A stretch of DNA of 54,414 bases from Bacteroidota bacterium. Its GTDB lineage: Bacteria; Bacteroidota; Ignavibacteria; UBA10030; UBA8401. Location: assembly GCA_028873075.1 (NCBI GenBank), contig JAGWND010000001.1:1-54414 (forward strand). The letters are read 5' to 3'. The position numbers were made by a program, and so were the translations under genes. Positions within the stretch are counted from its first letter, which is position 1. Every line of letters starts with the position of its first letter. The notes below the pieces were generated by a model that saw only the letters and a list, made by a program, of their open reading frames with translations, made no database searches and had not been told where the DNA came from. Shown in pieces: positions 6,219 through 54,064 of this stretch.

Positions 6219-6665
6219 ATGAATCAAAAATGGATCGCATTCCTGCGCATTGTCGTCGGCATTTTCTTCATCGGCGAAGGCTTGGGAAAGCTTGGGTGGT
6301 ATTCCTCGTCCGAATTTCTGAAATTGGACCTCGACCGCTTTGCGCAAAACGCGCCCGCTGTCTCTGCATGGTATCAACGACATGTTGCATACCCCGGCAT
6401 TGAAGCGTGGGCACGTCTCATTCCGACAGGAGAAATGCTCATCGGCATTGCACTGGTTATCGGCGTACTCACATTGCCGGTATTGATCGCTGCATTTCTT
6501 CTCGTGCTTAATTTCAATCTTACCAACGGCGTCCTTTTTTCGTGGAGATTTTTTTCGAATCCGTATGCGCTGCTTCTGCTTTCATGCATTCTTATGTTAA
6601 TCAACGGAAAAGCCGGAAGCGTTTTCGCGCTCGATACAAAGATGCGCAGAAGCAGAAAACTATGA
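6219..6665 (+). CDS. DoxX family membrane protein
   Basis: 148 aa, 4 TM, with a GAGGAG Shine-Dalgarno. LRIVVGIFFIGEGLGKL and the hydrophobic pattern are typical of DoxX. Confidence 0.8.
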   Translation: MNQKWIAFLRIVVGIFFIGEGLGKLGWYSSSEFLKLDLDRFAQNAPAVSAWYQRHVAYPGIEAWARLIPTGEMLIGIALVIGVLTLPVLIAAFLLVLNFNLTNGVLFSWRFFSNPYALLLLSCILMLINGKAGSVFALDTKMRRSRKL

Positions 6666-6693
6666 CCTCACGCAGAGCCGCCGCACATTAGTT

Positions 6694-6716
6694 GTCCGAC
6701 AGTTGCACTGTCGGAC
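6694..6716. repeat. REP-like hairpin GTCCGACAG-TTGCA-CTGTCGGAC
   Basis: A 9-bp perfect stem with a 5-nt loop, between the DoxX stop and the RAYT 3' end. Confidence 0.85.
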
Positions 6717-6733
6717 ATGCACCTGTTGGACAG

Positions 6734-7187
6734 TTATACTGCTCCCTTGCGAACAGGATTGTCGTGAATGTAGTTTAACTTTTGCATAAAAAAGTCCTGG
6801 AAAACAATGGCTTCCGGATGACCCCTCGATTGCCAGACCTTGCAATCGTTCCCTTCTCCCGCTCTTTCTGCCGCAGTAGCGAAATATTTCAAAAGCTTGA
6901 TGTTGTTCGTTTCTTTTCAAAAGATCAGAAACTTTGCGTGACGTAAAGCGTTTGAAATCCCGAAGAATGCCGGAAAGATTTCCATCCACCGTTGAGAGAA
7001 TGGTGTGGATATGGTTAGGCATAATAACATAGCCATGAATCGGCAGGCCTTTTTCATTTTGACAGTACTTCAAAGATGCAATGATTGAATTAAAGAAAGG
7101 GAAAGAAACAAATACGCATTGCCAGCCGACAATTGTATCGGTACGGAAATAGTATTCAACATCCTTTGTTAGGGCAAATGGTTTCAT
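6734..7187 (-). pseudogene. REP-associated tyrosine transposase (RAYT, IS200/Y1_Tnp-like), frameshifted near 6905-6925
   Basis: From ATG 7187: YYFRTDTIVGWQCVF...SLKYCQNEKGLPIHGYVIMPNHIHTILS (HUH = HIH)...RDFKRFTSRKVSDLLK. The +1 frame then gives LLKYFATAAERAGEGNDCKVWQSRGHPEAI..QKLNYIHDNPVRKGAV with a stop at 6734-6736. The shift lies at T4/A4 runs. Confidence 0.8.
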
Positions 7188-7231
7188 TTGTTGAGCTTTG
7201 TAGGAAGAGTTAAACTCTTCCCACAGTTTGT

Positions 7232-7254
7232 GTTCGACAGTGCAACTGTCGAAC
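7232..7254. repeat. REP-like hairpin GTTCGACAG-TGCAA-CTGTCGAAC, an inverted copy of 6694-6716
   Basis: A 9-bp perfect stem. It differs from the reverse complement of the first copy by a C>T / G>A compensatory pair. Confidence 0.85.
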
Positions 7255-7271
7255 AACTTGCGTGAAATTTT

Positions 7272-10924: not shown

Positions 10925-12193
10925 CTACGTCTTCTGCTGTTTCTTCTTCGCCGCTGGAAAGAGCACGTTATTGAGGATGAGACGGTAGCCGGGGGAGTTT
11001 TTGTGGAGGCTTAAATCTGTCGGCGGGTCGCCGACAGCATGTTGGTAATCTTCCGGATCGTGGCCGCCGTAAAACGTGAACGAGCCGCGCCCGTAATTGC
11101 CGTGAAGATATTTCACTTCTTCCGTTCCTTCCCGCTCCGCAAGAATTGTCACCGTCGGCTTGATCAAACTTTTTTTGAACGCCGTCGTCTGCCCCATAAA
11201 TCCTTTGATGATGTTGACGTGGTCCTGTGTCAGCATCGTGGGAACAGGATCGTACTTTGCGGAAAACTGAAACAGTGTAAAGTAATCGGTGTTCGGGTCG
11301 CGGATCGGCACAGGATCGCTCGGAGGAATGTCAATGTCGGAATACTCGTAGCGGTACGGATTCATCTCGAGCGTGAAATTCTGAAAGGCGAGCGTTTTTG
11401 AAAAGTCGAGCTTTTTCTGCGCATCGGGGTCGGGCGGATCGCCGTCATACATTACATCGCAGATGTCGTCGTTCTCAGCCGCAAGTGCAATGTCGTACGT
11501 GTCGGTCGCGGAACACATCGCAAACATGAAGCCGCCGTTGCCGATGTAATCTTTAATCGCACGGGCAACAGCTTTCTTTTCTTCCGAAACTTTTTTGAAG
11601 CCTAACTTATGCGCTTCTTTTTCGTACTGGATCTGCTGCTCGATGTACCACTGCGAATTGTGATGCGTTGCGTAGAATTTCCCGTACTGTCCGGTGAAAT
11701 CTTCGTGGTGGAGATGAAGCCAGTCGTACTGCGAAAGCTTTCCGCCAAGCACTTCATCATCCCACACCTTTGTGTACGGAATTTCGGCGTACTCGAGTGC
11801 CATCGTGACGGCGTCGTCCCACGGATTGAATGTCGGGGGAACATAGACGGCGATCTTCGGCGCTTTTTCCAACCGCTCGACATCCATATTCGAGTTTTCG
11901 CTTTCGATCTCACCGTAAACCTGCGCCGCTTGTGCGCCGCTTTCCGGTTCGAACAAAACACCCCGCACGCGGCACTCCGTTGCCGCAGCGTCGCTGTAAT
12001 CCATCATGAACGAGCCGCCGCGGTAATTCAACAGCCAGTCCACTTCAACACCCTGCTCGAGCGCCCAGTACGCGATGCCGTACGCCTTGAGATGATTCGT
12101 TTGTTTCAAATCCATCGGAATGAGAAGCTTCTGCTGGGCATACCCCATGCTTAACGTGAAAAAAAATATTCCCAGAAAAAACAACCGTTTCAT
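10925..12193 (-). CDS. conserved FCB-group secreted protein (family often auto-annotated 'asparagine synthetase B', glutamine-amidotransferase-like fold)
   Basis: ATG 12193 gives the signal peptide MKRLFFLGIFFFTLSMGYAQ. QTNHLKAYGIAYWAL...NYRGGSF matches my recollection of this family. The longer ORF start at 12256 is a TTG. Confidence 0.65.
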   Translation of the reverse strand: MKRLFFLGIFFFTLSMGYAQQKLLIPMDLKQTNHLKAYGIAYWALEQGVEVDWLLNYRGGSFMMDYSDAAATECRVRGVLFEPESGAQAAQVYGEIESENSNMDVERLEKAPKIAVYVPPTFNPWDDAVTMALEYAEIPYTKVWDDEVLGGKLSQYDWLHLHHEDFTGQYGKFYATHHNSQWYIEQQIQYEKEAHKLGFKKVSEEKKAVARAIKDYIGNGGFMFAMCSATDTYDIALAAENDDICDVMYDGDPPDPDAQKKLDFSKTLAFQNFTLEMNPYRYEYSDIDIPPSDPVPIRDPNTDYFTLFQFSAKYDPVPTMLTQDHVNIIKGFMGQTTAFKKSLIKPTVTILAEREGTEEVKYLHGNYGRGSFTFYGGHDPEDYQHAVGDPPTDLSLHKNSPGYRLILNNVLFPAAKKKQQKT

Positions 12194-12264
12194 TTCTTTT
12201 TTATGGAATAAACGAGGCAGAAAAACACATCGAGGGTTACGGGTTTCATAATTCAATTAAAAAA

Positions 12265-12354
12265 CTGTTTCGTGGTTTGAGTTTCGGGTTTTGCGTTTTT
12301 GAACTTCTGAACGCCGCCTGCTTAGCTCGAACCCAAAAACTCAAACCTCGAATC
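12265..12354. repeat. heptad-periodic inverted-repeat element E1
   Basis: Left arm CTGTTTC GTGGTTT GAGTTTC GGGTTTT GCGTTTT; right arm GCTCGAA CCCAAAA ACTCAAA CCTCGAA. An 11-bp perfect stem GGTTTGAGTTT (12274-12284) pairs with AAACTCAAACC (12337-12347), with flanking pairs. Confidence 0.8.
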
Positions 12355-12389: not shown

Positions 12390-13049
12390 CTACGCCGCAG
12401 AAAGAAGCGCCGGAGATGGCTGTGTGTGTTTCTTCGCTTTCTTCACCGGAGCCGCGATATAACCTTCCCGTACCGCGAACGTATGGAGCTTTTCCTGCAT
12501 CACTTTCCTCGCACGGTGGAGCCGCGAGCGAACCGTGCCGAGAGGAATTTCAAGTATCTCGGCAATTTCTTCATACGTCAATCCTTCAAGATCGGAGAGA
12601 ATGATGATCGTACGGAATTCTTCAGTGAGAGACTCCATCGCATTGACAATATCGTCATCGAGCATGTTCCTGAAGAGTTGCGTGCGCAGATCGTTCGAAT
12701 CGTCCGAATGCTTTTTCACCAGGTCGTAGTAATCCTGAATTTCGTCGTAATCAACTTGTTCCGGCGTTCGCGCCTGCCGGCGGTAATCGTTGATGAAAGA
12801 ATTTTTCATAATGCGGAAGAGCCACGCTTTTGCATTCGTGCCTCGCTCGTACTTGTCAATGAAACGGTACGCCTTCAGGTACGTGTCTTGCAGCAAATCT
12901 TTCGCATCGTCGGTATTGCCGGTGGTGCGGAGTGCAAAGTTGTATAACAGACTCATGTGCGGAACCATCTCGCGCTGGAATAATTCCTCTCTCTCTCGTA
13001 CAACGTTTTTTTCTATTTTTGAAGTCATAGCAACCGCCTTTCTTGGCAT
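12390..13049 (-). CDS. ECF-type RNA polymerase sigma-70 factor
   Basis: 219 aa with region 2 (DLLQDTYLKAYR..AWLFRIMKNSFINDYR) and region 4 (LSDLEGLTYEEIAEILEIPLGTVRSRLHRAR). Confidence 0.85.
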   Translation of the reverse strand: MPRKAVAMTSKIEKNVVREREELFQREMVPHMSLLYNFALRTTGNTDDAKDLLQDTYLKAYRFIDKYERGTNAKAWLFRIMKNSFINDYRRQARTPEQVDYDEIQDYYDLVKKHSDDSNDLRTQLFRNMLDDDIVNAMESLTEEFRTIIILSDLEGLTYEEIAEILEIPLGTVRSRLHRARKVMQEKLHTFAVREGYIAAPVKKAKKHTQPSPALLSAA

Positions 13050-19484: not shown

Positions 19485-20930
19485 TTACCCCTTCCTCATC
19501 ACATACTCATCAATTGCTTTTGCAGCAGTTTTTCCTGCACCCATCGCTTTGATCACCGTCGCTGCGCCGATGACGATATCGCCGCCAGCCCACACACCTT
19601 CGCGCGATGTTTTTCCTGATTCATCCGCAACAATGTTGCCGTACTTTGTCACACTGAGGCCGGGCGTTGTTTTGTTGATAAGCGGATTCGAGCCGTTGCC
19701 GACTGCAATGACAACCGCTTCGGCTTCGAGCGTAAATTCGCTGCCGGGAATCGGAACCGGCTTGCGCCTGCCCGACGCATCCGGTTCGCCTAATTCCATC
19801 CGCTGGCATTCAACGCCGTTCAGCCATCCATCTTTGCCGAGAAAGCGCGTCGGGTTCGTCAAAAGCAAAAACTCAATGCCTTCCTGTTCGCCGTGATGAA
19901 TTTCTTCTTTGCGCGCAGGCATCTCGACATGCGAGCGGCGGTACACGATGTACACTTTTTCCGTCCACGGCAGGCGGAGCGCCGTGCGCGCGGCATCCAT
20001 CGCCGTGTTGCCTCCGCCGACAACGACAACATGCTTCGCCATCGGCACCGGTGTATCGGCGCTATTAGGGAATTCAAACCCCTTCATCAAATTGACGCGG
20101 GTAAGAAATTCGTTGGCGGAATAAACGCCGTTCAGATTTTCTCCCGGAAGCTTCATGAAGTACGGCAGTCCAGCTCCCGTTCCGATAAACGCTGCATCGA
20201 AACCGTCTTCGTTCATCATCTCGTCAATCGTGCGCGTCATGCCGACGACAAAATCGCATTTGATCTGTACGCCAAGCTTCTCGAGATACTGCACTTCCGC
20301 TTCAACAATTTGTTTCGGCAGACGAAACTCAGGAATGCCGTACACGAGCACACCGCCCGGTTTGTGCAGCGCTTCAAAAATCGTTACCGAATGCCCGCAC
20401 TTCGCCAAATCGCCGGCACAGGTCAATCCCGCCGGACCGGCGCCAATGATGGCAATTTTCTTTCCGGTCGGCGGCGGTATTTCCGGAATCGCCATCTCGC
20501 CGTTCGCACGCTCCCAATCCGCAACAAAGCGCTCCAAGCGTCCAACCGCCACCGGATCAACTTTCGCACCGATCACACAAAGCGATTCGCATTGGTCTTC
20601 CTGCGGACAAACTCTTCCGCAGACAGCAGGAAGCGCATTAGTTTGTTTCAAGAGCTGTGCTGCACGAGCAAAATTTCCCGCCGCAACTTGTTCAATGAAC
20701 TGCGGAATCTGCACGTTGACCGGACAGCCTTCAACGCATTTTGCTTTTTTGCAGAGCAGGCAGCGCTCTGCTTCTTCCATTGCCATTTCGGGAGTGTAGC
20801 CGAGCGGCACTTCGAAAAAATTATGGGCGCGTTCCAGCGGACTTTGTTCCGGCATCGGGTGCCGCGGAATTTTCATCCGCTCTTTGTTGGAAATTTTCGG
20901 TTTGACTGATATTTGGATGTCGGTGTTCAT
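19485..20930 (-). CDS. nfnB: NfnB / GltD-like NADPH-dependent oxidoreductase (glutamate synthase small-chain family, 2x[4Fe-4S] + FAD)
   Basis: 481 aa with Cys clusters CLLCKKAKCVEGCP and CGRVCPQEDQCESLC and two Rossmann motifs (IIGAGPAGL, VVGGGNTAMD). It is paired with an NfnA-like gene upstream. Confidence 0.85.
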   Translation of the reverse strand: MNTDIQISVKPKISNKERMKIPRHPMPEQSPLERAHNFFEVPLGYTPEMAMEEAERCLLCKKAKCVEGCPVNVQIPQFIEQVAAGNFARAAQLLKQTNALPAVCGRVCPQEDQCESLCVIGAKVDPVAVGRLERFVADWERANGEMAIPEIPPPTGKKIAIIGAGPAGLTCAGDLAKCGHSVTIFEALHKPGGVLVYGIPEFRLPKQIVEAEVQYLEKLGVQIKCDFVVGMTRTIDEMMNEDGFDAAFIGTGAGLPYFMKLPGENLNGVYSANEFLTRVNLMKGFEFPNSADTPVPMAKHVVVVGGGNTAMDAARTALRLPWTEKVYIVYRRSHVEMPARKEEIHHGEQEGIEFLLLTNPTRFLGKDGWLNGVECQRMELGEPDASGRRKPVPIPGSEFTLEAEAVVIAVGNGSNPLINKTTPGLSVTKYGNIVADESGKTSREGVWAGGDIVIGAATVIKAMGAGKTAAKAIDEYVMRKG

Positions 20931-20943
20931 TTGTTAAAAGAAT

Positions 20944-21037
20944 GATTCAAGATTCAGGTTTCAGGTTTCAGGTTTCAGGTTTCAATGGTTTGAGATTCGT
21001 GATTCGAGTTTAGAGTTTGCAAGTTACGAGTTTCAAG
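20944..21037. repeat. degenerate heptanucleotide tandem array (about 13 units, CAGGTTT x4 perfect at 20955-20982)
   Basis: GATTCAA GATTCAG GTTTCAG GTTTCAG GTTTCAG GTTTCAA ..ATTCGTG ATTCGAG TTTAGAG TTTGCAA .. TTTCAAG. Confidence 0.9.
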
Positions 21038-21053
21038 CAGAGCAGCGGCACTT

Positions 21054-21085
21054 ATTCCATCATTCCAATGTTCCATTATTCCAAC
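21054..21085. repeat. 8-nt periodic array of (A/G)TTCCA words, x4
   Basis: ATTCCATC ATTCCAAT GTTCCATT ATTCCAAC, starting at 21054, 21062, 21070 and 21078. Confidence 0.85.
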
Positions 21086-21147
21086 CTACTTATCTTTTTC
21101 ACTTCTGACAACTGACTTATTCCTCGAATCGCGAAACTCGGAGCCAC

Positions 21148-22008
21148 TCACCACACCGCTGTTTCTCTTTGCTCCTGCGTTGCGCAAATCTTGTTGAACA
21201 ATTCCAGCGAGATTTTTTCCTGCGGCGAATACATTTTTTGACGCGCCATCAGTAATTCGAAATCAACCTGATGCGCATCGAATTCCGGTCCGTCAACGCA
21301 GGCGAATTGTAATTTATCTCCGACAACGACACGGCACGCGCCGCACATTCCCGTTCCGTCCATCATAATCGGATTCAGGCTGACAAGCGTCTGTACGCCG
21401 TACGACCGTGTGAGATCGGCAACCGCTTTCATCATCACCACCGGGCCAATGGCGAGCACAACATCCATCGGCTCGCGATTTTCGAGCATCGATTTCAGAA
21501 CTGTCGTTACAAATCCTTTCGTGCCGTAGCTTCCGTCGTCTGTAGCTATGCGCACATCATCGGAAATTGCGCGCATTTCATTTTCCATCAGCATCAACCC
21601 TTTTGTTCTCGCGCCAATAATGGAAATTGTTTTATTGCCGATGAGCTTGTGCGCGCGGACGATCGGGTGAATTGCCGCAATCCCGAATCCTCCGCCGAGC
21701 GCAACGAGCGTCTTCCCTTTTTCTATGTGACTCGGAATGCCGAGCGGTCCCACAACATCCGCCAGCACGTCGCCCGCTTTCATCATGCTCATCATGATTG
21801 TCGTTTTACCGATTGCCTGTACGTAGAGCGTGATAGTCCCTTTCGCAACATTCCAATCCGCAAGCGTGATAGGAATGCGCTCGCCGTCATCGTACAAACG
21901 AAGAATCACAAACTGTCCGGCTTTTGCTTTCCTTGCTACGTCGGGCGCTTCGATAATGTAGCGGTATACTTTAGCTGCAAGATCGTTCTTCTCAAGAATT
22001 CGAAACAT
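21148..22008 (-). CDS. nfnA: NfnA-like ferredoxin-NADP+ reductase subunit (sulfide/dihydroorotate dehydrogenase-like FAD/NAD-binding protein with C-terminal [2Fe-2S])
   Basis: 286 aa with the FNR-like fold (RIPITLAD, GGGFGIA) and a C-terminal CGACRV...CVDGP cluster. Confidence 0.8.
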   Translation of the reverse strand: MFRILEKNDLAAKVYRYIIEAPDVARKAKAGQFVILRLYDDGERIPITLADWNVAKGTITLYVQAIGKTTIMMSMMKAGDVLADVVGPLGIPSHIEKGKTLVALGGGFGIAAIHPIVRAHKLIGNKTISIIGARTKGLMLMENEMRAISDDVRIATDDGSYGTKGFVTTVLKSMLENREPMDVVLAIGPVVMMKAVADLTRSYGVQTLVSLNPIMMDGTGMCGACRVVVGDKLQFACVDGPEFDAHQVDFELLMARQKMYSPQEKISLELFNKICATQEQRETAVW

Positions 22009-23417: not shown

Positions 23418-26069
23418 TTACTCACCTAAATAATATGTCAGCTTCACCATAAAAATATTGTTGAACTGTGCATTGATGAGACGATGCAGCGATGACCCGA
23501 AATGAAATTCGCCGTGGTCGTTGTAATCATCCGTTCCGCTCTGCGTCCAGACGAAATAAAGCACGGAGCCGGGAAGATATTCCCAGCGCAGCACGGCGTT
23601 GCCGCGCAATGATTTGAAATTGAAATCCGGATCATCGAATGTAAACGAATTCGCCGGTCCGTTTCCGTCGGGATCAACCGTGTATTCCGATCCCTGCTTC
23701 GAAACATCGCTCGCCGAATATTGATTGAACTCGTACGAAAGCGGGCGAGCAAGCTCTTTGTAGTCGTGATACTTTCCCGAAGAAATCAGCGGCTGCAAAT
23801 AAAGCTGGACGCTCAACTGAGGAGTGAATGTCCAGTTCAACCGAATGCTCGCAGAGAGCGTCGTTTGGTCGAGCGTGGCGAAAACGTACCGGCTGCCGTA
23901 TGTCGGCGCCGCCAGCGGATCGGTAAACGCGCCGACCCACTGCGAAAAATCTTTTACCTTTCCGAAATCCGGCTCGAAGCTCACGTACACATTGCCTGCA
24001 GGCTTCCACACGACGCTTGAAGAAACATCCCATTGGTTGCTCGACTTTTGATTGTACGTCGTGCCCTGGAGTCCGAATACCCATTTCTCTTTGCCGTTCG
24101 ATTGAGCGGAAGCGTCAACCTGAAATCCGGGTTCGTTCAACGCAAGCGGGCCGCCGCGCGTGAGACGGTTATTCACGGTTTGCGGATTATACGCAACATC
24201 GTATGAGACAAAATAAAAATTCGGAAGCGTCGCTTCTGTGCGCTGAAACATTCCTTCCCAAATCGTGTTGCCGTCAAAATTGTGGCTGCCAAACACAGCA
24301 AGCATCGTCCAGATTTGCTGATAATATTTCGTCGGCGTTACCCATTGATAACCGGCACCTGCGTGGTAATTGATCAGATCGTTTCGCCAGACAAAGCCGA
24401 GATCGTTCACATCGAATCCCGGCGAAATGAAACCGAGCGCCGAGTTGACGAAAAAGTTTCCTTTCTGTTTGATGAGACGGAATCGTCCGGCATACCCGGA
24501 TAACGACGTCGCTGCACTGTCAACGTGATAGCTCTTTGCATCGGGGCGCTGAAAATAATGGCGCGAGCTTGTTTGCACATCGAGCATCCGCGCCGTTGTT
24601 CCTTCAATGCGGGAACTGCCGAGCCAGCCTGTTGCAACCCACGATTTGTCGCCGTCGAGAAATGTCCATCCGTCAATGCCGCCGCTCAGTGCGCGGCTGT
24701 CGAGCTGATCGCGCAAACCGTTATTGTCGTTATCGAACGCTCTGTCGGTGAACGTGGAAATGAATCCAACCGCCTGATCGCCGCTGTTGAATTGTTTCTG
24801 TGCGCGCGCGATACCGTAATAGGTAAGCGGCTCGACTTCAACCGCTGAACGCCGGCCGGCGAGTTGAATCTGCGCATTCTCTTTTGACGTTACAGCGTGA
24901 ATCGTGCCGATATTCCAGTTGCCGCCGACATTTCCGGAAAGTTTTGCGGCGCCGAGAATTCGTGTTCCGGCCGGTTCATCAATATAATCGTACGACGGCA
25001 AGCTTCCTTCCGGTGCTCTTCCGATTCTTCTGCTGTAGAAGAAGTCCGGACTGCCCCAGTTGAAACCCCAGTTGTTGCGCGCCCCGCCGTTGCCGAAATC
25101 GAAAATGCTTTGTCCTTCGAGAAAGAAGGGCCGCTTTTCCTGATAAAATGTTTCGACGTCGCTCAGGTTCACGACCGCCGGATCAACTTCCACTTGACCG
25201 AAATCGGGATTGATCGTTCCGTCGAGCGTGAGGTTGCTTCCGATGCCGACTTTCAGATCGGCGCCGGTTGCCGGAACATATTTCGAGCCGGAATTGAACG
25301 GATCGCCTGCGGCAGGATGAGAATATTCCGCGCGCGTTGTGACGTACGGCGTTACTTCAAATCTGCCCGGCGGCGTGATGTTTTCGATTCCTGCAAGATC
25401 GGGAAAACGGGAGACAAAACCGCTTCCGTTTTTCGGGGTGTACACAATCTGGTCCGTTTCATTTCTGCGTGCAATATCCCGCCGAAAATTTATTCCCCAA
25501 ATAATTTTTTTGCTTTCGTGGAAGCGAAGCTGCGAGTACGGAATACGAAGTTCCGCCGTCCATCCTTTGCTGTCAATGCGCGTTTTCCCTTCCCAGACGC
25601 CGTCCCATGAATCGTCGGTCCAATCGTCGTTCAGGAATGTTCCGTCAATCAGCGTGCCTGCGGCGCTCACACCGAAATAAAATCCGCTCCGCTTGTCGTG
25701 ATAGGTATCGAGTCCGACGGCAAAAAAATCGGCTGTGGTTATTCCATCGCGGCGGGTAAGCTCAGCGATAATCGAATCGGGAGCAGAATCGTACATCCGC
25801 GCACCGACATATAACGCCTGATCATCGTACAGCAACCGCACTTCTGTTCTTTGCGTCGGAGCCGCTCCCTGCACCGGATCGCTTTGCACGAAATCGGTGA
25901 TCGGCGGCGCGCTTTGCCACGCGCGTTCGTCGAGCATTCCGTCAATCGTGATCGCCTGCGTCGTTCGCACGGCGCGGATTTCAGGAATGACGCGCGGCGT
26001 AGTTCCTTCGCCGGCAACCGCGTATGATGCGGAGGACAGGATCGGCAATATCAGCAGCAAAAATTTCAT
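23418..26069 (-). CDS. CBM9-like / DUF5916 outer-membrane protein
   Basis: 883 aa with a signal peptide. N-terminal ITIDGMLDERAWQSAPPITDF.Q..P is a CBM9-like module, followed by a long beta-rich C-terminus ending in an aromatic residue pattern. Confidence 0.8.
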   Translation of the reverse strand: MKFLLLILPILSSASYAVAGEGTTPRVIPEIRAVRTTQAITIDGMLDERAWQSAPPITDFVQSDPVQGAAPTQRTEVRLLYDDQALYVGARMYDSAPDSIIAELTRRDGITTADFFAVGLDTYHDKRSGFYFGVSAAGTLIDGTFLNDDWTDDSWDGVWEGKTRIDSKGWTAELRIPYSQLRFHESKKIIWGINFRRDIARRNETDQIVYTPKNGSGFVSRFPDLAGIENITPPGRFEVTPYVTTRAEYSHPAAGDPFNSGSKYVPATGADLKVGIGSNLTLDGTINPDFGQVEVDPAVVNLSDVETFYQEKRPFFLEGQSIFDFGNGGARNNWGFNWGSPDFFYSRRIGRAPEGSLPSYDYIDEPAGTRILGAAKLSGNVGGNWNIGTIHAVTSKENAQIQLAGRRSAVEVEPLTYYGIARAQKQFNSGDQAVGFISTFTDRAFDNDNNGLRDQLDSRALSGGIDGWTFLDGDKSWVATGWLGSSRIEGTTARMLDVQTSSRHYFQRPDAKSYHVDSAATSLSGYAGRFRLIKQKGNFFVNSALGFISPGFDVNDLGFVWRNDLINYHAGAGYQWVTPTKYYQQIWTMLAVFGSHNFDGNTIWEGMFQRTEATLPNFYFVSYDVAYNPQTVNNRLTRGGPLALNEPGFQVDASAQSNGKEKWVFGLQGTTYNQKSSNQWDVSSSVVWKPAGNVYVSFEPDFGKVKDFSQWVGAFTDPLAAPTYGSRYVFATLDQTTLSASIRLNWTFTPQLSVQLYLQPLISSGKYHDYKELARPLSYEFNQYSASDVSKQGSEYTVDPDGNGPANSFTFDDPDFNFKSLRGNAVLRWEYLPGSVLYFVWTQSGTDDYNDHGEFHFGSSLHRLINAQFNNIFMVKLTYYLGE

Positions 26070-26075
26070 AACAGT

Positions 26076-26188
26076 TTTTCGAGTTTCGTGGTTTGAGCTT
26101 TGAGGTTCGAAACGCTCCTTACTGCTTATTTGTTTCGAGAGTTAGAACTCTAAAACTCGAATCACGAATCCCGAACCTCAAACCTTTT
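26076..26188. repeat. heptad-periodic inverted-repeat element E3 (intercistronic)
   Basis: TTTTTCG AGTTTCG TGGTTTG AGCTTTG AGGTTCG ... AACTCTA AAACTCG AATCACG AATCCCG AACCTCA AACC. The stem 26097-26109 pairs with 26172-26184 (12/13 bp). It shares GTTTCGTGGTTTGAG (26083-26097) with E1. Confidence 0.8.
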
Positions 26189-26190
26189 TT

Positions 26191-27312
26191 CTACTTTACA
26201 AGCTTTCTAATCTCGATATTCCCGGCAGACGTTTTCAAAGAAATATCTTCGCCGCCGCCGTTGAGTATGTATTTACCGTAGATTTCCTCTTCGTCTTTAT
26301 CTTTATGATATTCAGCGGCTTTGAAATCAGAATGGATATCGTACCTCTCGTCGGAGTGCCGCCACCATCCCCGCAACCTGATCTCCGCTTCGATCGTCGC
26401 GCGCGCGTGTTCATCAATGTAAAGCGTCACATCGCCGCCGGATGAGCTAAGCTCGCTGTCACCTTTCCCGCTCGGCGTTAATTCCGCAGTGACATTGCCG
26501 CCGGAAGTTTTTCCTTCTACCGAGCCGGTAATATTGCGTAATTCAAGATCGCCGCCGGCTGTTTTTGCGGAAACTCTTCCGCTGGCGCTTTGGAGCTCAA
26601 TGCTGCCGCCCGCAGTTCGGAGCGTTGCGCTGCCCGAAACTTTCCCAACGGTAATATCGCCGCCGGCAGTCGTAACATTCGCATCGCCGCCGACATCACC
26701 GAGCTGAATATCGCCGCCGGCAGTTGATCCTTTGAACGATTTTCCAATTTTCTCAACGCGAATATTTCCCCCGGATGTGCTGACGTCCGTTTCACCGGAA
26801 ACAGAGCCGACACGCACATCACCGCCGGAGGTTCGCAGCGTTACTGTTCCCTCCACATCACCGGTGGTAACATCGCCGCCGGAGGTTGTGCCCTTCACTC
26901 TTCCTTTCACGACCCCGCGCAGATCAATGTTGCCCCCCGACGTGTGAACATCGGCGTCAAATTCCTGCGGCATCCGAATATCGAAACGGGCGTCGCCGTT
27001 AAATCCCCAGCGCGGGCGAAAATCTACACGCACGGTATTATCGGATTGGGAAATTTCCAGGTCTTCCAAATCGTCGTCATCAATTCCTTCGGCGCGGACG
27101 CTCACCTCGTTTTTATCCCACGTGTTGATGGCGATATCGCCGCCGCTGACGGTGACTTCAAGATTCCCCCCCTTGCTGACGGTGAATGTTTTCGTGCGGC
27201 TTGCGCCCGAATCGGCACATGCCGTGTTCATGAAGAAAACCGCGAAAAATAATTGAACGACGAAGAGATGAATGGCGCTGGATAAATGGATTGATGGATT
27301 GATGGTTTTCAT
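26191..27312 (-). CDS. DUF4097 repeat protein, paralog of 22295..23359
   Basis: 373 aa with a signal peptide and repeated T(S/A)GGD(I/V) units. Its start overlaps the anti-sigma stop (ATGA). Confidence 0.85.
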   Translation of the reverse strand: MKTINPSIHLSSAIHLFVVQLFFAVFFMNTACADSGASRTKTFTVSKGGNLEVTVSGGDIAINTWDKNEVSVRAEGIDDDDLEDLEISQSDNTVRVDFRPRWGFNGDARFDIRMPQEFDADVHTSGGNIDLRGVVKGRVKGTTSGGDVTTGDVEGTVTLRTSGGDVRVGSVSGETDVSTSGGNIRVEKIGKSFKGSTAGGDIQLGDVGGDANVTTAGGDITVGKVSGSATLRTAGGSIELQSASGRVSAKTAGGDLELRNITGSVEGKTSGGNVTAELTPSGKGDSELSSSGGDVTLYIDEHARATIEAEIRLRGWWRHSDERYDIHSDFKAAEYHKDKDEEEIYGKYILNGGGEDISLKTSAGNIEIRKLVK

Positions 27313-28983: not shown

Positions 28984-29102
28984 TGATTGACCTGTATATC
29001 TATATGACTTCGCATCGGGAAAATAGTTGGCGGCTTGTTGTGCATTGATGCGTAGGCATCAATCTTTCAGATTGAACGGATTTTTTGAGAAAATGTTGCT
29101 AT

Positions 29103-29129
29103 GTAGGTCGAAGCGGCGCTTCGACCTAC
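29103..29129. repeat. perfect 27-nt palindrome GTAGGTCGAAGCG-G-CGCTTCGACCTAC
   Basis: It has 13-bp arms and sits in the divergent region between the ECF sigma and the F420-reductase-like gene. Confidence 0.8.
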
Positions 29130-29213
29130 TTCGGCATTGAACTCATTAGCTCTTCACAGTGTTCTTTTACCATCATTCATACCATACACTCACAACTTAT
29201 TTTTGGAGGATCC

Positions 29214-29858
29214 ATGCACGTCGGTGTTTTCGGAACGGGAATGGTGGGGAAAGCCATCGGCACGAAGTTGGTACAGCTCGGTCACGAAGTAAAAATGGGA
29301 TCGCGCACGGCGAACAACGAGAAAGCGGCTGCATGGGTAAAAGCAAACGGCGCGCGAGCAACGCAGGGAACATTCGGCGATGCCGCGGCATTCGGCGAAA
29401 TGCTTTTTAACTGCACCTCGGGAATGGGTTCGCTCGATGCGCTCCACTCTGCCGGCGAAAAAAATCTGAACGGGAAGGTTCTCGTGGATATTTCCAACCC
29501 GCTCGATTTTTCCAAAGGAATGCCGCCGTCTCTTTTTGTGTGCAACACCGATTCGCTTGCCGAGCAAATTCAGCGCGCCTTTCCACACGCGAATGTTGTG
29601 AAAGCACTGAACACGATGAACTGCAACTTGATGGTAAACCCGTCGCTCGTGCCCGGCGAACACGATGTGTTCCTGTGCGGAAACGATGCCGGCGCGAAGA
29701 CAAAAGTAAAAGAAATACTGACATCGTTCGGATGGGAATCACCGATTGATTTAGGCGATCTCTCCGGCGCACGCGGCATGGAAATGATTCTGATGTCGTG
29801 GATTCGCCTGATGGGCGTTTATCAGTCGCCGAATTTCAATTACAAAATTGTGCGGTGA
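29214..29858 (+). CDS. NADPH-dependent F420 reductase-like / NAD(P)-binding oxidoreductase (F420_oxidored family)
   Basis: 214 aa from ATG 29214 with a GGAGG Shine-Dalgarno. VGVFGTGMVGKAIGTKL is a Rossmann motif. Confidence 0.8.
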   Translation: MHVGVFGTGMVGKAIGTKLVQLGHEVKMGSRTANNEKAAAWVKANGARATQGTFGDAAAFGEMLFNCTSGMGSLDALHSAGEKNLNGKVLVDISNPLDFSKGMPPSLFVCNTDSLAEQIQRAFPHANVVKALNTMNCNLMVNPSLVPGEHDVFLCGNDAGAKTKVKEILTSFGWESPIDLGDLSGARGMEMILMSWIRLMGVYQSPNFNYKIVR

Positions 29859-29863
29859 GAAAT

Positions 29864-29933
29864 GATTCAGGATTCAAGTTTCAGGGTTCAGGCCGGCTGT
29901 CGTTCACTACGCTTGAAACCTGACTCTTGAATC
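29864..29933. terminator. heptad-periodic inverted repeat E4, probably a bidirectional terminator between convergent genes
   Basis: GATTCAG GATTCAA GTTTCAG GGTTCAG G ...19 nt... CTTGAAACCTGACTCTTGAATC (18/22 pairing), then TTTTT. Confidence 0.65.
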
Positions 29934-29937
29934 TTTT

Positions 29938-30705
29938 TCAATCCAATGTTCCCGCGTACACTTCAGTGCCGTATTCAAATGTGACCACGCCGTTCTGCTG
30001 CGTTCGATCAAAGATATTTTTCAATTCCCTCATCATCGGCACAAAACGTTTGTCGTCGCTCAGCGGTACGTACGACGAGGAAAGAAGCCTTCCTTTCAAT
30101 CCTTCAAAATCAAATCGCTGGCTGTTGGAGAAAACTTTCTTAATGTGCGAAGTAAAAAATTTCGAGAGTACCGTTTCATTCACGTGGCGGTGATCAATCT
30201 GCTCGTAATCTGAGGAATAACGAAGCAGTAATTCTTCGTACGCTTTCAGAAATGGCGACGTATCGGTTCTCCGCGTGTTCCAGAGAAGCACCACCGGACC
30301 GCCCCGCTTTCCGATGCGGCGGAATTCTTTTTTTGTTTTCTCCTGATCGAACCAGTGAAACGCCTGTCCCGCCGTAACAAGATCAACGCCGTGCGGCGGC
30401 AGTGTTGTCGCTTCTGCCGTTCCATTGACGCTTTTGAAATTCGAATAGTGATGCAGCAATTTCTCGGCGGCAATTCTCATTTCGTTGTTCGGCTCAACGC
30501 CAAAAACCGTATTGCCGTTGCGAAGAAAAATTTCCGAAAGGATGCCGGTTCCCGAACCGACGTCTGCGATCATCCACGACGGTTTTAAATGAAGTTCACC
30601 CGTGAGAAACGAAAAAACTTCCGGGGGATAACCGGGGCGGTAGCGGACGTAATTTTCGACTCTGTTTGAAAAGCGTTCTGTGGATTTCATTTCTTCTTTC
30701 GTCAT
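29938..30705 (-). CDS. class I SAM-dependent methyltransferase
   Basis: 255 aa with motif I DVGSGTGILSE. Confidence 0.85.
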   Translation of the reverse strand: MTKEEMKSTERFSNRVENYVRYRPGYPPEVFSFLTGELHLKPSWMIADVGSGTGILSEIFLRNGNTVFGVEPNNEMRIAAEKLLHHYSNFKSVNGTAEATTLPPHGVDLVTAGQAFHWFDQEKTKKEFRRIGKRGGPVVLLWNTRRTDTSPFLKAYEELLLRYSSDYEQIDHRHVNETVLSKFFTSHIKKVFSNSQRFDFEGLKGRLLSSSYVPLSDDKRFVPMMRELKNIFDRTQQNGVVTFEYGTEVYAGTLD

Positions 30706-34951: not shown

Positions 34952-35017
34952 GTTGAACGGTTGAACTTTACGCATAATTATAGTACAATACTCCCACCTT
35001 TCATTCAACCTCCAACC
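34952..35017. promoter_or_regulatory. palindromic arrangement of four GGTTGAA-like heptamers in a divergent promoter region
   Basis: GTTGAAC-G-GTTGAAC (34952-34966) faces TTCAACC-TCCAACC (35004-35017). Confidence 0.4.
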
Positions 35018-45202: not shown

Positions 45203-45356
45203 GAAATAATCATTCAGTCGTGAGTTTGTAGAACACACTTCGGCATCCGATATTCAACATCCACGGTGAAGAATGAATGCCGGATAAAGTATTTCTGAAT
45301 GACGACTTTTCTGCCGCTCACGGACAACTTTGTGTTACGAAAGGAGGGATGTCATC

Positions 45357-47555
45357 ATGGCATTGCATCAAAAGCCGAACAGAATCGTGCTTGTGTCAAA
45401 CCGCCTCCCCATCACGATCAGGAAGACCGACACGGGGCTGGAATTTCGCTCGAGCGTCGGGGGGCTCGCAACCGGCTTGCAGTCCGTGCAAGGTGATCAA
45501 GAGATTCTCTGGATCGGCTGGCCCGGAACAGTTGCAAAAGAGGACCGGAAGGAAGCGGAAGCGACGCTGATACAGCAGCACAACTATACGCCGGTTTTTA
45601 TGAGCGAGCGGCTTGTGGAGAAATTTTATGAAGGGTTCTGCAATCGTACAGTGTGGCCCCTCCTTCATTCGTTTCCGATGTACACAAAATATTCTGCTGC
45701 GGAATGGGAAGCGTACAATGAAGCCAACATGTTGTTTGCGGAAAGGATCCTCAAAACGGCGCGCCACGACGATATCATCTGGATCCACGATTACCATTTG
45801 ATGCTTCTGCCGAAACTGCTGCGCGATCATTTTCCGCGGGCGAGCATCGGATTTTTTCTCCACATTCCGTTTCCGCAGTACGACATTCTCCGGCTTCTTC
45901 CGCAAAGCAAAGAAATTGTCGAGAGCCTTCTCTCGGCTGATCTCATCGGATTTCACACACACGATTACGCGCAGGCATTCCTCGGCAGTGTGCGGAGAAT
46001 TCTCGGCTACGACAACGCGCTGGGACAGATCATGCGGGGCGACCGCGTTGTGCAGGTGGATGTGTTCCCGATGGGAATTGATTTCGACCGTTACTCGCAC
46101 GCCGCACAGGATGCGGCGGCACTGCAGGAAGTCGAAAAAATTCACCAGCGCATTGGAAAAAGAAAAATTGTCTTTCTTGTCTCGCGCCTCGACTACACGA
46201 AAGGGATTCCACAAAGCCTCGATGCAATCGAAGAGTTCTTTGAACGCTATCCCCAGTGGCGTGAAAACGTGACCTTCATTCTTGTTGTTGTTCCGTCGCG
46301 CGAGCGGGTTGAGCGCTATGCCTCGCTGAAGCGTCAGATTGACGAACAAGTCGGCAGCATTATCAGCGCGTACGCGACGCTCGACTGGGCCCCGATCCGC
46401 TACATTTACAGGAACCTCGACTTCCCGCTCTTGGTTGCATTATATGAAGCTTCGGATGTCGCACTCATTATTCCTTTGCGCGACGGCATGAATCTTATTG
46501 CAAAGGAATATCTTGCCGTGCAAAACGATTGTGAGGGCGTGCTTATTCTAAGCGAGCTTGCAGGCGCAGCAAAAGAGCTTTTGGAATCGGTCATAGTAAA
46601 TCCGAATAATACGGAAGATGTCGCGGCGGCAATTGACCGCGCGCTGACGATGCCCGTTGACGAACAGCGCCGCCGGAATGAAATTATGCGCCGCCGTCTT
46701 CAAAGCTACGGACTGGAACAGTGGGTGCACGCATTCCTCCGCCGGCTCACTGATGTTGTCACCCAGTCACAATCACTGTCGGTCAAAATTCTCAACGCAA
46801 CAACAAAAAAAGAATTGCTGAAAGAATACGCCAAAGCCGAACGACGGCTTCTCATTCTCGATTACGACGGAACACTTGTGCCGTTTGCCAATGAACCGGG
46901 CGCCGCGAAACCCGACAAAGAGCTGTTCCAGATTTTGAAGGCACTTTCCGATTCCTCAAAAAATTCCGTTGCAATTCTCAGCGGGCGCGACCGGCATTCG
47001 CTCACTGCGTGGTTTGGTTCGATGAACATGGTGCTTGCAGCGGAACACGGCGGCTGGATAAAACACAGCGGCAGTTCCGACTGGCATTCCACTATCGCAG
47101 GTTCGCAGGATGTGTGGAAAGAACAAGTGCGCCCGATCCTTCAGCTGTATGTTGACCGAATTCCCGGCTCGTTTATCGAGGAAAAAGATTTCGCGCTCGT
47201 GTGGCACTACCGGCAGGCAGATGTTGAATCCGGGTCTGTCGCTGCGAAAGAATTGCTCGATACGGTCTCGAATCTTGCCGCGAATTTCGGCATTCATGTT
47301 CTGCCGGGAAGCAAAACTGTTGAGGTGCGGAACGTCAGCATCGGCAAAGGAATTTTTTTCAACCAACAATTTGCAAAGGAAAATTTCCCATTCATGCTCG
47401 TCATCGGCGATGATTGGACGGATGAAGATTTGTTCGGCGTGCTGCCGCAGTCGGCATATTCCATCAGAGTCGGCAAGAGCGTGTCGAAAGCGCGCTTCAA
47501 TGTCGAAACAATTGCCGATGTGCGAGCGCTGCTGGGTGAGCTTGAAAAGAAATAG
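45357..47555 (+). CDS. otsAB: bifunctional trehalose-6-phosphate synthase / trehalose-phosphatase (OtsA-OtsB fusion)
   Basis: About 732 aa from ATG 45357 with an AAGGAGGG Shine-Dalgarno. The GT20 domain has VSNRLP, IWIHDYHL and LRDGMNL. The C-terminal HAD domain has LILDYDGTL and GDDWTDEDLF. Confidence 0.9.
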   Translation: MALHQKPNRIVLVSNRLPITIRKTDTGLEFRSSVGGLATGLQSVQGDQEILWIGWPGTVAKEDRKEAEATLIQQHNYTPVFMSERLVEKFYEGFCNRTVWPLLHSFPMYTKYSAAEWEAYNEANMLFAERILKTARHDDIIWIHDYHLMLLPKLLRDHFPRASIGFFLHIPFPQYDILRLLPQSKEIVESLLSADLIGFHTHDYAQAFLGSVRRILGYDNALGQIMRGDRVVQVDVFPMGIDFDRYSHAAQDAAALQEVEKIHQRIGKRKIVFLVSRLDYTKGIPQSLDAIEEFFERYPQWRENVTFILVVVPSRERVERYASLKRQIDEQVGSIISAYATLDWAPIRYIYRNLDFPLLVALYEASDVALIIPLRDGMNLIAKEYLAVQNDCEGVLILSELAGAAKELLESVIVNPNNTEDVAAAIDRALTMPVDEQRRRNEIMRRRLQSYGLEQWVHAFLRRLTDVVTQSQSLSVKILNATTKKELLKEYAKAERRLLILDYDGTLVPFANEPGAAKPDKELFQILKALSDSSKNSVAILSGRDRHSLTAWFGSMNMVLAAEHGGWIKHSGSSDWHSTIAGSQDVWKEQVRPILQLYVDRIPGSFIEEKDFALVWHYRQADVESGSVAAKELLDTVSNLAANFGIHVLPGSKTVEVRNVSIGKGIFFNQQFAKENFPFMLVIGDDWTDEDLFGVLPQSAYSIRVGKSVSKARFNVETIADVRALLGELEKK

Positions 47556-47574: not shown

Positions 47575-47695
47575 GAGATTCGAGAGCTAAGATTCACGAT
47601 TCAGGTTTCATAACTCAAGCGTTTTGAACAATAGCCTTGAATCACGAATCTTGAAACCTGAATCCAAACCACAAAACTAGAAACTCAAACCACGA
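47575..47695. repeat. heptad-periodic inverted-repeat element E5
   Basis: TCGAGAT TCGAGAG CTAAGAT TCACGAT TCAGGTT TCATAAC ... CCTTGAA TCACGAA TCTTGAA ACCTGAA TCCAAAC CACAAAA CTAGAAA CTCAAAC CACGA. A 13-bp perfect stem pairs 47598-47610 with 47652-47664. AAACTCAAACCACGA (47681-95) is the reverse complement of the E1 core. Confidence 0.8.
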
Positions 47696-47699
47696 CTGT

Positions 47700-48908
47700 A
47701 TGCTCACCCTCAACGACTATCGCCCGATTGTCGGCGACAAAATTATTTCTGAAATTTACCGGCTCGCGCGCGATCTTTACGGCGCGAAGGTGCTTCACAT
47801 CAACTCCACCTATTACGGCGGCGGCGTTGCCGAAATGCTCTACACGCTCGTGCCGCTGTTGAACGACGCCGGCATCAATGCAGACTGGAGAATTCTCCGC
47901 GGCTCCGAAGATTTCTTCATGATCACGAAAAAATTCCACAACGCTCTGCAGGGAGACCACATCAACCTCAGCGAAATGAAAAAAGATATCTACGTGAGAA
48001 CAAATGAAGATTTCTCGACGTACTGCGAGGTTGACCACGACGCTGTCATCGTTCATGATCCGCAGCCGCTGCCGCTGATTCGTTTCTATAAAAAACGCCA
48101 GCCATGGATCTGGCGCTGCCATGTTGACCTTTCGCATCCGAATCAGGAACTGTGGCATTTCCTTACCGATTTTATTCTGCGATACGATGCAGTGATCGTT
48201 TCGGCAGAGTATTACCGGAAAGACGATCTTCCTGTAGAACAAAAAGTGGTCGCACCGGTTATTGATCCGCTGACAGCAAAGAACAAAATGCTGCCGCACA
48301 CTCTTATTCACAAGATGTTGAAAAAGAACGACATCCCGACCGACAAACCGCTGATCACACAAATTTCCCGCTTTGATAAATGGAAAGACCCCGTTGGCGT
48401 TGTTGAAGCGTTTAAGCTGGTGCGGCGCAAAACCGACTGCCGCCTCGTATTGTGCGGCAGTATGGCACCGGACGATCCTGAAGGATGGGATATTTATGAC
48501 AGCGTGAAATCAAAAGCGAAAACACTGATCGAGAGCGGCGACGTAATTTTGAACACGACGGAACATAACGTTCTCGTCAATGCGCTCCAGCGAAGTTCCG
48601 CAGTCATTATTCAGAACTCGACGCGCGAAGGTTTCGGGTTGACGGTGACTGAAGCATTGTGGAAAGGAAAACCGGTCGTGGCGACAAATGTCGGCGGCAT
48701 TCCGCTACAGATTGTTGACGGCGAGTCGGGATTTCTTGTTGAACCGGAGAACAGCGAGCAGTTGGCGCAGCGTACGCTGGAAATCCTCCAGCACCCGGAA
48801 ATGGGCAAACATTTGGGCGAGCGTGGGCGCGAAGATGTGCGCCAGAAATTTCTTATCACACGAATGGTGTACGACGATTTGAAGTTATTGAGAGAGTTAA
48901 TCGGATAA
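47700..48908 (+). CDS. treT: trehalose glycosyltransferring synthase (TreT-like GT4 glycosyltransferase)
   Basis: 402 aa. HINSTYYGGGVAEML, FHNALQG, WIWRCHVDLS, ITQISRFDKWKDP and REGFGLTVTEALWKGKPVV match my recollection of archaeal TreT. Confidence 0.8.
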   Translation: MLTLNDYRPIVGDKIISEIYRLARDLYGAKVLHINSTYYGGGVAEMLYTLVPLLNDAGINADWRILRGSEDFFMITKKFHNALQGDHINLSEMKKDIYVRTNEDFSTYCEVDHDAVIVHDPQPLPLIRFYKKRQPWIWRCHVDLSHPNQELWHFLTDFILRYDAVIVSAEYYRKDDLPVEQKVVAPVIDPLTAKNKMLPHTLIHKMLKKNDIPTDKPLITQISRFDKWKDPVGVVEAFKLVRRKTDCRLVLCGSMAPDDPEGWDIYDSVKSKAKTLIESGDVILNTTEHNVLVNALQRSSAVIIQNSTREGFGLTVTEALWKGKPVVATNVGGIPLQIVDGESGFLVEPENSEQLAQRTLEILQHPEMGKHLGERGREDVRQKFLITRMVYDDLKLLRELIG

Positions 48909-53998: not shown

Positions 53999-54064
53999 AG
54001 TTCTGTCAAAAAAATTCGATTCGTTTCTATTGAAGTTTGAGGCAATGGGCCTCTGATATTTTTT

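Follow-up and report, generated by a model that had tools for sequence, protein, structure and literature searches.

The stretch of DNA analysed here (the window) comprises 54,414 nucleotides, contig C323 of a metagenome-assembled Bacteroidota genome of the class Ignavibacteria (G000; 3.39 Mb in 347 contigs, 48.6% G+C), and holds five short intergenic loci, at 12265-12354, 20944-21140, 26076-26188, 29864-29933 and 47575-47695, which an initial annotation had described as a dispersed family of long imperfect hairpins built from 7-nucleotide words. The Lon protease of this uncultured organism is 93% identical to that of 'Bacteroidetes bacterium DBS2-5.bin33', and its more distant relatives bear the labels Ignavibacteriales or Ignavibacteriaceae, in line with the class assignment. 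All five are found at these coordinates when the sequence is read out, none is assigned to a strand, and every one follows a stop codon in a co-directional or convergent spacer, in keeping with the placement at gene 3' ends or between cistrons that had been noted. Locus 1 (12265-12354) is a heptad-word hairpin of the form GTTTCGT GGTTTGA GTTTCGG GTTTTGC ... AACCCAAAAACTCAAACCTCGAA, located in a 133-nt spacer between two genes of the minus strand, one for an ECF-type sigma factor (12390-13049) and the open reading frame at 10925-12256. Locus 3 (26076-26188) is a second such hairpin, filling a 121-nt gap between a DUF5916/CBM9 gene (23418-26069) and the upstream minus-strand gene (26191-27312), while locus 4 (29864-29933), which reads GATTCAG GATTCAA GTTTCAG GGTTCAG ... 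CTTGAAACCTGACTCTTGAATC, separates the convergent genes at 29085-29858 (plus strand) and 29938-30705 (minus strand). Locus 5 (47575-47695), a heptad-word hairpin of about 125 nt, occupies the junction between an otsAB-like gene (45330-47555) and a treT-like gene (47700-48908).

Fold energies were compared with those of dinucleotide shuffles, 200 for each locus. Loci 1, 3, 4 and 5 form hairpins on both strands, with 0-1 of the 200 shuffles folding as well (z-scores from -3.1 to -5.2), and the period of 7 claimed for their arms is borne out in all four. The energies on the two strands are -30.8 and -30.7 kcal/mol at locus 1 (z -4.5 and -4.0; 22 pairs, 20 matched), -34.9 and -33.1 at locus 3 (z -3.7 and -3.1; 31 pairs, 23 matched), -29.8 and -24.1 at locus 4 (z -5.2 and -4.1), and -27.9 (plus) and -43.5 (minus) at locus 5 (z -3.6 and -4.9), where the antisense strand folds far better. 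The description of every locus as a long imperfect hairpin does not extend to locus 2: its whole spacer (about 213-217 nt) gives a z-score of +1.05, with 171 of 200 shuffles folding as well, and a long or global hairpin is rejected there on this ground. This spacer (20931-21147), between an nfnA-like gene (21148-22008) and an nfnB-like gene (19485-20930), is instead a composite of about 13 unpaired heptad units at 20944-21040, including GGTTTCA in four perfect copies, four copies of the 8-mer ATTCCANN at 21052-21083, and a short, single long-range pairing of 20984-21008 with 21123-21148. At 53999-54064 and 34952-35017, where similar words had been thought to recur, we see no periodic array by eye and no detector reports one.

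The 12-mer TCGTGGTTTGAG, put forward as a shared core, is present as claimed at 12270 and 26086 on the plus strand and at 47684 on the minus strand, and extends pairwise to 15-16 nt, where 15 nt had been noted. When up to one mismatch is allowed it has four matches in the window, compared with 0.28 expected from shuffles, and none of 100 shuffles reaches four. Genome-wide, however, its exact copies number three, all inside the window, so that it cannot serve as a family-wide core, and the loops of the three loci that carry it are unrelated to one another. What does recur is the word dialect: three or more tandem units of G[AGT]TT[CT][AG]N occur 69 times on more than 40 contigs, as against 0-1 times for six column-shuffled motifs. 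Further copies in the genome are thus found for the dialect and not for the exact 12-mer; the initial annotation was right to see a dispersed family of heptad-word inverted repeats, whose unity lies in word dialect and build rather than in a conserved core or interior.

Autocorrelation at lag 7, which had been proposed as a check, returns 100 segments across the genome, compared with 12 at lag 6 and 9 at lag 8, and the pattern TTCA(N3)x4 has 17 matches at period 7 and none genome-wide at periods 5, 6, 8, 9 or 10. Period-7 arrays occupy about 190-192 loci in G000; on a crude ORF map, which underlies the gene-based statistics and leaves about 10% of the genome intergenic, 137 arrays are intergenic and 72 'coding'. 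Some 92 consensus words are used, typically with 4-5 positions fixed and 2 variable (GATTCAN, TCAATNN, GTTCAAN, ACTGATN, CCAATWA and TTCCATN among others), and they are AT-rich (68% A+T), the dominant ones being free of GGG tracts. An excess of stop-codon-bearing words was looked for and rejected, a stop on either strand being found at 0.78 in the words and 0.78 in letter-shuffled ones; heptad words with a stop on both strands are rarer than in the shuffled set (0.12 versus 0.25).

Long intergenic hairpins, defined by at least 17 pairs, fall genome-wide into 59 with period-7 arms, 49 with period-8 arms and 399 that are non-periodic, and other periods are not prominent. The period-8 class comprises GGAWTNNT ... 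ANNAWTCC and CRCAAAGA types; words such as GGAATNNT and GGATTNNT on the 5' arm and ANNATTCC on the 3' arm are seen, for example, at C131:6088-6175 and C285:4099-4154, with a 5-nt core that pairs well and three variable positions that are partly mismatched. In the window, the 8-mers at 21052-21083 belong with this class. About two thirds of the period-7 arrays lack a clear inverted partner, and array loci show no enrichment in inverted repeats over random intergenic regions when any hairpin is counted; it takes a test of arm periodicity to bring out the signal. Periodic hairpins have a common polarity, with more G than C on the 5' arm in 41 of 54 period-7 and 41 of 46 period-8 cases, compared with 129 of 281 non-periodic ones. 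This polarity reads alike from either strand. The excess of transitions over transversions in the arms is uninformative, because the alignment scoring used on them favours transitions.

The median distance of the hairpins from the upstream stop codon is 11 nt, and they are depleted from divergent spacers, which hold 2 of the 59 period-7 and none of the 49 period-8 hairpins while accounting for 234 of 1545 spacers overall. Together with the position of locus 4 between convergent genes and a T run that follows loci 1, 3 and 4 on one strand, such closeness to stop codons would suit intrinsic, partly bidirectional terminators, or 3'-end stabilisers, whose construction from repeats is incidental. 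We nevertheless consider this reading quite improbable: a T run follows period-7 hairpins on the sense strand in 16% of cases and on the antisense strand in 20% (29% and 17% for short non-periodic hairpins), the T run of locus 3 lies on the wrong strand and locus 5 is not followed by one, the AT-rich stems of 20-50 bp (median 25 pairs) are far longer than those of terminators, and congeners lack the elements at orthologous sites, their genes abutting there. The short GC-rich stem with a U tract on the transcribed strand that defines an intrinsic terminator is thus not what we find, and T runs have no sense-strand bias. G-U pairs are likewise without bias towards the transcribed strand (88 sense, 100 antisense), and as the antisense strand of locus 5 folds better, there is no sign of selection on mRNA structure.

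Two genomes of the same genus, G001 and G002, whose coding DNA is about 80-90% identical to that of G000 and which are syntenic across the window, allow each locus to be followed to its orthologous site. Locus 5 is absent from both, the otsAB stop and treT start being separated there by 3-5 nt, and the spacer of locus 1 is occupied in both by an unrelated, non-heptad hairpin. At locus 3, partial heptad arms with another repeat inserted are found in G001 and a short spacer without a hairpin in G002. Locus 4 has a homologue in G001, with the same loop and 83% identity, and none in G002; at G001:C40, by the orthologue of window positions 29933-29938, an insertion of about 2.3 kb separates this hairpin from the methyltransferase gene. 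Locus 2 corresponds in the congeners to heptad arrays of other words (GGTTCAA in G001; AAAAATC / TTTTCCA in G002). Since no gap separates nfnA from nfnB in any of the 24 genomes sampled from outside the family, where the two genes abut or overlap, whereas within it their junction is opened to 28-217 nt by a word dialect that differs from genome to genome, this junction (window 19485-22008) is a hot spot.

Presence or absence among congeners, together with dispersal in intergenic DNA, is also the behaviour of REP/REPIN or MITE families moved in trans by a transposase, and the elements further resemble these in being short, numerous palindromes that outnumber their gene-carrying partner. The window even contains a RAYT-like gene (6660-7256) with REP-like hairpins at 6693-6735 and 7230-7260. 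The latter (TGTCCGACAG...CTGTCGGACA), however, form a separate family without words common to the heptad elements, so that no REP sequence is shared between the dispersed copies and the hairpins beside the RAYT-like gene. Neither do the heptad elements have the near-identical copies, conserved interior and target-site duplication of MITEs: they lack a conserved sequence, their best common stretch is 12-16 nt, their loops are unrelated, and we found no associated transposase and no target-site duplication, the latter looked for at the locus 5 junction. We therefore regard such a family as a highly improbable source.

Arms of this kind also flank genes of PF05635 (the family of the '23S rRNA intervening-sequence protein'), of which G000 encodes 15 members above the curated Pfam cut-off and two that are weak or decayed, none of them in the window. 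Their products have matches to TIGR02436 ('four helix bundle protein') and to 2GSC, a solved structure from Xanthomonas, and Avd of diversity-generating retroelements is among the relatives of the family (PMC10053308). Periodic inverted arms (an inverted repeat score of at least 16 and a period of 7 or 8 in the arms) bracket 9 of the 15 genes, each in its own dialect, whereas 913 control ORFs with lengths of 240-700 nt include no such case (Fisher 4e-18); by eye, about 12 of the 17 are bracketed. Almost all (13 of 14) are co-oriented with both neighbours, and the cassettes, in the sense orientation in mRNA spacers, must be transcribed with the operon. The paralogous proteins are of old divergence, with a median identity of 34%.

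Two cassettes use words of the window. The arms of the C90 cassette (GGTTCGAGATTTGTGGTTTGAGTTTTGAGG ... CAAACCACGAAACTCGAACC) are in the dialect of loci 1, 3 and 5, and GTGGTTTGAGTTT is limited genome-wide to C90, C201 and window loci 1 and 5. The closest paralogue of the C90 protein, that of C75 (62% identical), is flanked by arms of GATTCAG words, as used at loci 2, 4 and 5, whereas one PF05635 cassette, C153, has period-8 arms. In the 17 homologues of the C90 protein that we examined, from 15 genomes of the class, the gene lies between inverted arms 450-680 nt apart, which are heptad-periodic in most cases, similar proteins being accompanied by similar words. Decayed PF05635 remnants at C44:21042-21275 and C157:4823-5232 (three in-frame stops; 51-residue fragment) are still enclosed by inverted word arms and thereby transitional between a cassette with its gene and an empty shell. 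A PF05635 gene or relic is contained in none of the five window loci, and the same holds for these loci in G001 and G002; for this reason we class them as gene-less derivatives rather than full members of the type of rRNA intervening sequences (IVS), and their link to PF05635 is one of shared build and dialect, not of direct descent. Gene-less elements outnumber gene cassettes by about 7 to 1.

Orthologous sites were compared further in G003, from another genus than that of G000, and in two additional relatives, G004 and G005. At the C90 site, arms and gene are present in G000 and G003, while G001 and G002 have a gene-less heptad hairpin whose arm start is homologous, with the same GGTTCG(A/T)G. 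At the C329 site, the gene is found in G000, G003 and G005, G001 and G002 have other, solo hairpins, and G004 retains both arms with the ORF reduced to its first codons directly after a homologous left arm (MDRKDNVLAKKSFAF in comparison with MLTEDNNLYKKSFAF). This relic is identified by a 16-residue protein match, by its position after the homologous left arm and by 16 of 20 bases matching by eye; DNA-level BLAST does not detect it. At the C123 site, G000 and G005 carry the gene and G003 has a heptad hairpin alone, and at the C160 site a cassette is seen in G000 only. At the C153 junction (G000:C153:2170-2660; G001; G002:C138:1885-2450; G005:C6:384889-385418), three PF05635 cassettes that cannot be aligned with one another, in three dialects, occupy the interval between one pair of flanking genes, a sign that preferred sites may have received insertions repeatedly or exchanged their cassettes. 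Read from their sequences, the orthologous sites thus present what appear to be states of one element, namely gene cassette, truncated relic, gene-less hairpin and nothing. The alternative direction, in which a PF05635 gene was inserted into the loop of a pre-existing hairpin, is contradicted at the G004 relic only.

Across the class, TTCA-type period-7 arrays occur in 86 of 201 genomes, with lineage-specific words. Of the control genomes, that of Bacteroides thetaiotaomicron alone is positive for PF05635. In 98 of the class genomes, in which two word cores were counted (TTCA and ACTT), such arrays are found in 50 of 78 that are PF05635-positive and in none of 20 that are PF05635-negative (Fisher 5e-8, Spearman 0.53, with related genomes not independent of one another).

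These data bear on whether the elements are plain long simple-sequence repeats that grow by slippage in non-coding DNA, with inverted pairs tolerated or mildly useful and the proximity of PF05635 incidental. Heptamer repeats have been reported in excess in bacteria and explained by slippage (Mrazek 2007, as cited in PMC4692102), and slippage surely contributes to the arrays here, because locus 2 has perfect units without a partner arm and many arrays are unpaired; given that proportion of arrays without a clear inverted partner, slippage alone could make many of them, and a single spacer can hold different dialects in close relatives. It leaves unaccounted for, however, the bracketing of PF05635 genes and of no other small ORFs by periodic inverted arms, the absence of arrays from PF05635-free genomes of the class, the common polarity of the 5' arm, the confinement of variation to fixed word positions and the near absence from divergent spacers. 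As a sole cause slippage is already weakened, and we judge it unlikely.

The reading that we favour, and hold to be probable with some reserve, is that the window loci are gene-less shells of IVS-like PF05635 cassettes, wedged into operon junctions. The population consists of inverted repeats whose arms hold 3-6 tandem words of 7 nt (8 nt in the second class), in a dialect particular to each locus and with the G-rich words on the 5' arm. A full cassette has a periodic arm, a PF05635/TIGR02436 gene in the loop and a complementary arm, and lies in the sense orientation in a spacer between co-directional genes, a few bases past a stop codon. The window shells may be cassettes that an internal deletion has stripped of the gene, or else non-autonomous arm copies, subsequently modified by unit-by-unit slippage and decay, with locus 2 as a putative heap of half-elements. 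Transcribed with their operon, the elements would pair their arms into an imperfect RNA stem of 20-50 bp, of the kind that RNase III cuts in rRNA intervening sequences; since the stem is of this type, the likely effect would be processing or insulation of the polycistronic mRNA rather than termination. An RNase III gene is encoded in G000, and by analogy with those intervening sequences the shells are probably substrates of the enzyme. The elements would be quickly gained and lost, and may be mostly selfish or neutral DNA. Points that count against this reading are the divergence of locus 4 from its G001 homologue, at about the rate of its flanks, the missing PF05635 gene or relic at the window loci, the surplus of gene-less elements over gene cassettes, the many arrays without an inverted partner, the failure to find a transposase or target-site duplication, and the lack of strand bias in G-U pairs.

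The closest precedent for the cassettes is the 23S rRNA IVS of Coxiella burnetii and Leptospira (PMC4990558). In Coxiella, a 28-bp stem of terminal inverted repeats carries the S23p ORF in its loop and is cut by RNase III within the stem (PMC4990558). Both kinds of element have terminal inverted repeats with a PF05635-family ORF in the loop, and both have a sporadic distribution with hints of horizontal spread and ORF decay (PMC4990558). The long IVS-type stem is present here, and the ORF, which occupies the loop at none of the five window loci, is found at 15 other loci. Unlike the rRNA elements, which reside in helix 9, 25 or 45 of 23S rRNA, the cassettes of G000 are flanked by protein-coding genes, and a search of Rfam is empty for the window and for 11 cassette loci, with no rRNA match among the latter. 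Their arms also differ in being periodic 7/8-nt words, most copies are gene-less, and cleavage would follow here by analogy.

For the arrays themselves, the initial annotation had pointed to the heptameric STRR repeats of cyanobacteria. These short tandemly repeated repetitive sequences belong to heterocystous species and have a consensus of the CCCCAGT type. The analogy is a fair one: as with STRR and other heptameric long simple-sequence repeats, the elements consist of tandem 7-nt units in at least 3 copies, are dispersed and mainly intergenic, comprise several word families per genome, vary at fixed unit positions, can lie within operons and are without a known function. In contrast to STRR, the words here are of AT-rich GATTCAG, TCAATNN and GTTCAAN types, none of them CCCCAGT-like, the host is a Bacteroidota bacterium of the class Ignavibacteria, a third or more of the arrays form arm-loop-arm hairpins, and a parallel 8-nt class exists.

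The palindromic arrangement had been taken as an addition to what is known of heptamer repeats, but Xanthomonas is already known to have convergent heptamer pairs (Rehm et al. 2015, PMC4692102), with 70 of them in Xcc and 75 in Xac, and heptameric long simple-sequence repeats have been recorded across the bacteria (Mrazek 2007, as cited in PMC4692102). Both IVS with S23p (PMC4990558) and heptamer arrays, with inverted pairs among them (PMC4692102), were thus known before. The GGGAATC pairs of Xanthomonas (PMC4692102) are, like the elements here, nearby arrays on opposite strands, with the potential to form stem-loops and mostly intergenic; they are transcribed and vary in length and sequence between close relatives, which applies here as well, with transcription deduced from position. 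They use a single word, rich in G, to which the authors ascribe G-quadruplex formation (PMC4692102), as opposed to dozens of AT-rich words without G-tracts in G000. The IVS protein is not mentioned in that study (PMC4692102), and yet the solved PF05635 structure, 2GSC, is that of a Xanthomonas protein, and PF05635 genes such as XCC0516 occur in that genus. Among the papers listed by our literature search, none links the PF05635 family to heptamer repeats or STRR.

A cassette origin of this kind may help to explain the heptamer repeats of cyanobacteria and Xanthomonas. Heptamer repeats, both STRR and heptameric simple-sequence repeats, have served as fingerprinting targets, and their over-representation has been on record for decades, although no origin or role is known for them. 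PF05635, in turn, is a large family that to our knowledge has been met with only in rRNA intervening sequences and, in the form of Avd, as a partner of diversity-generating retroelements. The two are linked here by three results: the bracketing arms, the states of orthologous sites and the lack of arrays in gene-free genomes. It is conceivable, although on balance doubtful, that a pentameric, Avd-like PF05635 protein recognises, or helps to build, the 7/8-nt word arrays of its own arms, that PF05635 cassettes constitute a widespread and so far undescribed mobile or self-renewing element, and that gene-less hairpins, including cyanobacterial STRR and the Xanthomonas heptamer pairs, are its non-autonomous offspring. 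If true, this would give a cause for a decades-old puzzle and a role for an abundant protein family. The question of why heptamers occur becomes testable at the bench, through binding of the arms by a PF05635 protein and cutting of the stem by RNase III. For annotation, it is relevant that the elements split operons (nfnAB, otsAB-treT) and can pass for terminators or regulatory RNAs.

The genome has other repeats as well. A further dispersed short hairpin, GTCATTCC(G/C)GCGAAAGC(C/G)GGAATCC, has about 27-30 copies in G000, and the GTCATTCC hairpin family is also seen in G001 at locus 3 and in G001 and G002 at the C123 site. The commonest 14-mers in the genome are GCGGGATAAACTCC (43 copies) and AAACTGTAACACTAC (37 copies), which may be CRISPR repeats.
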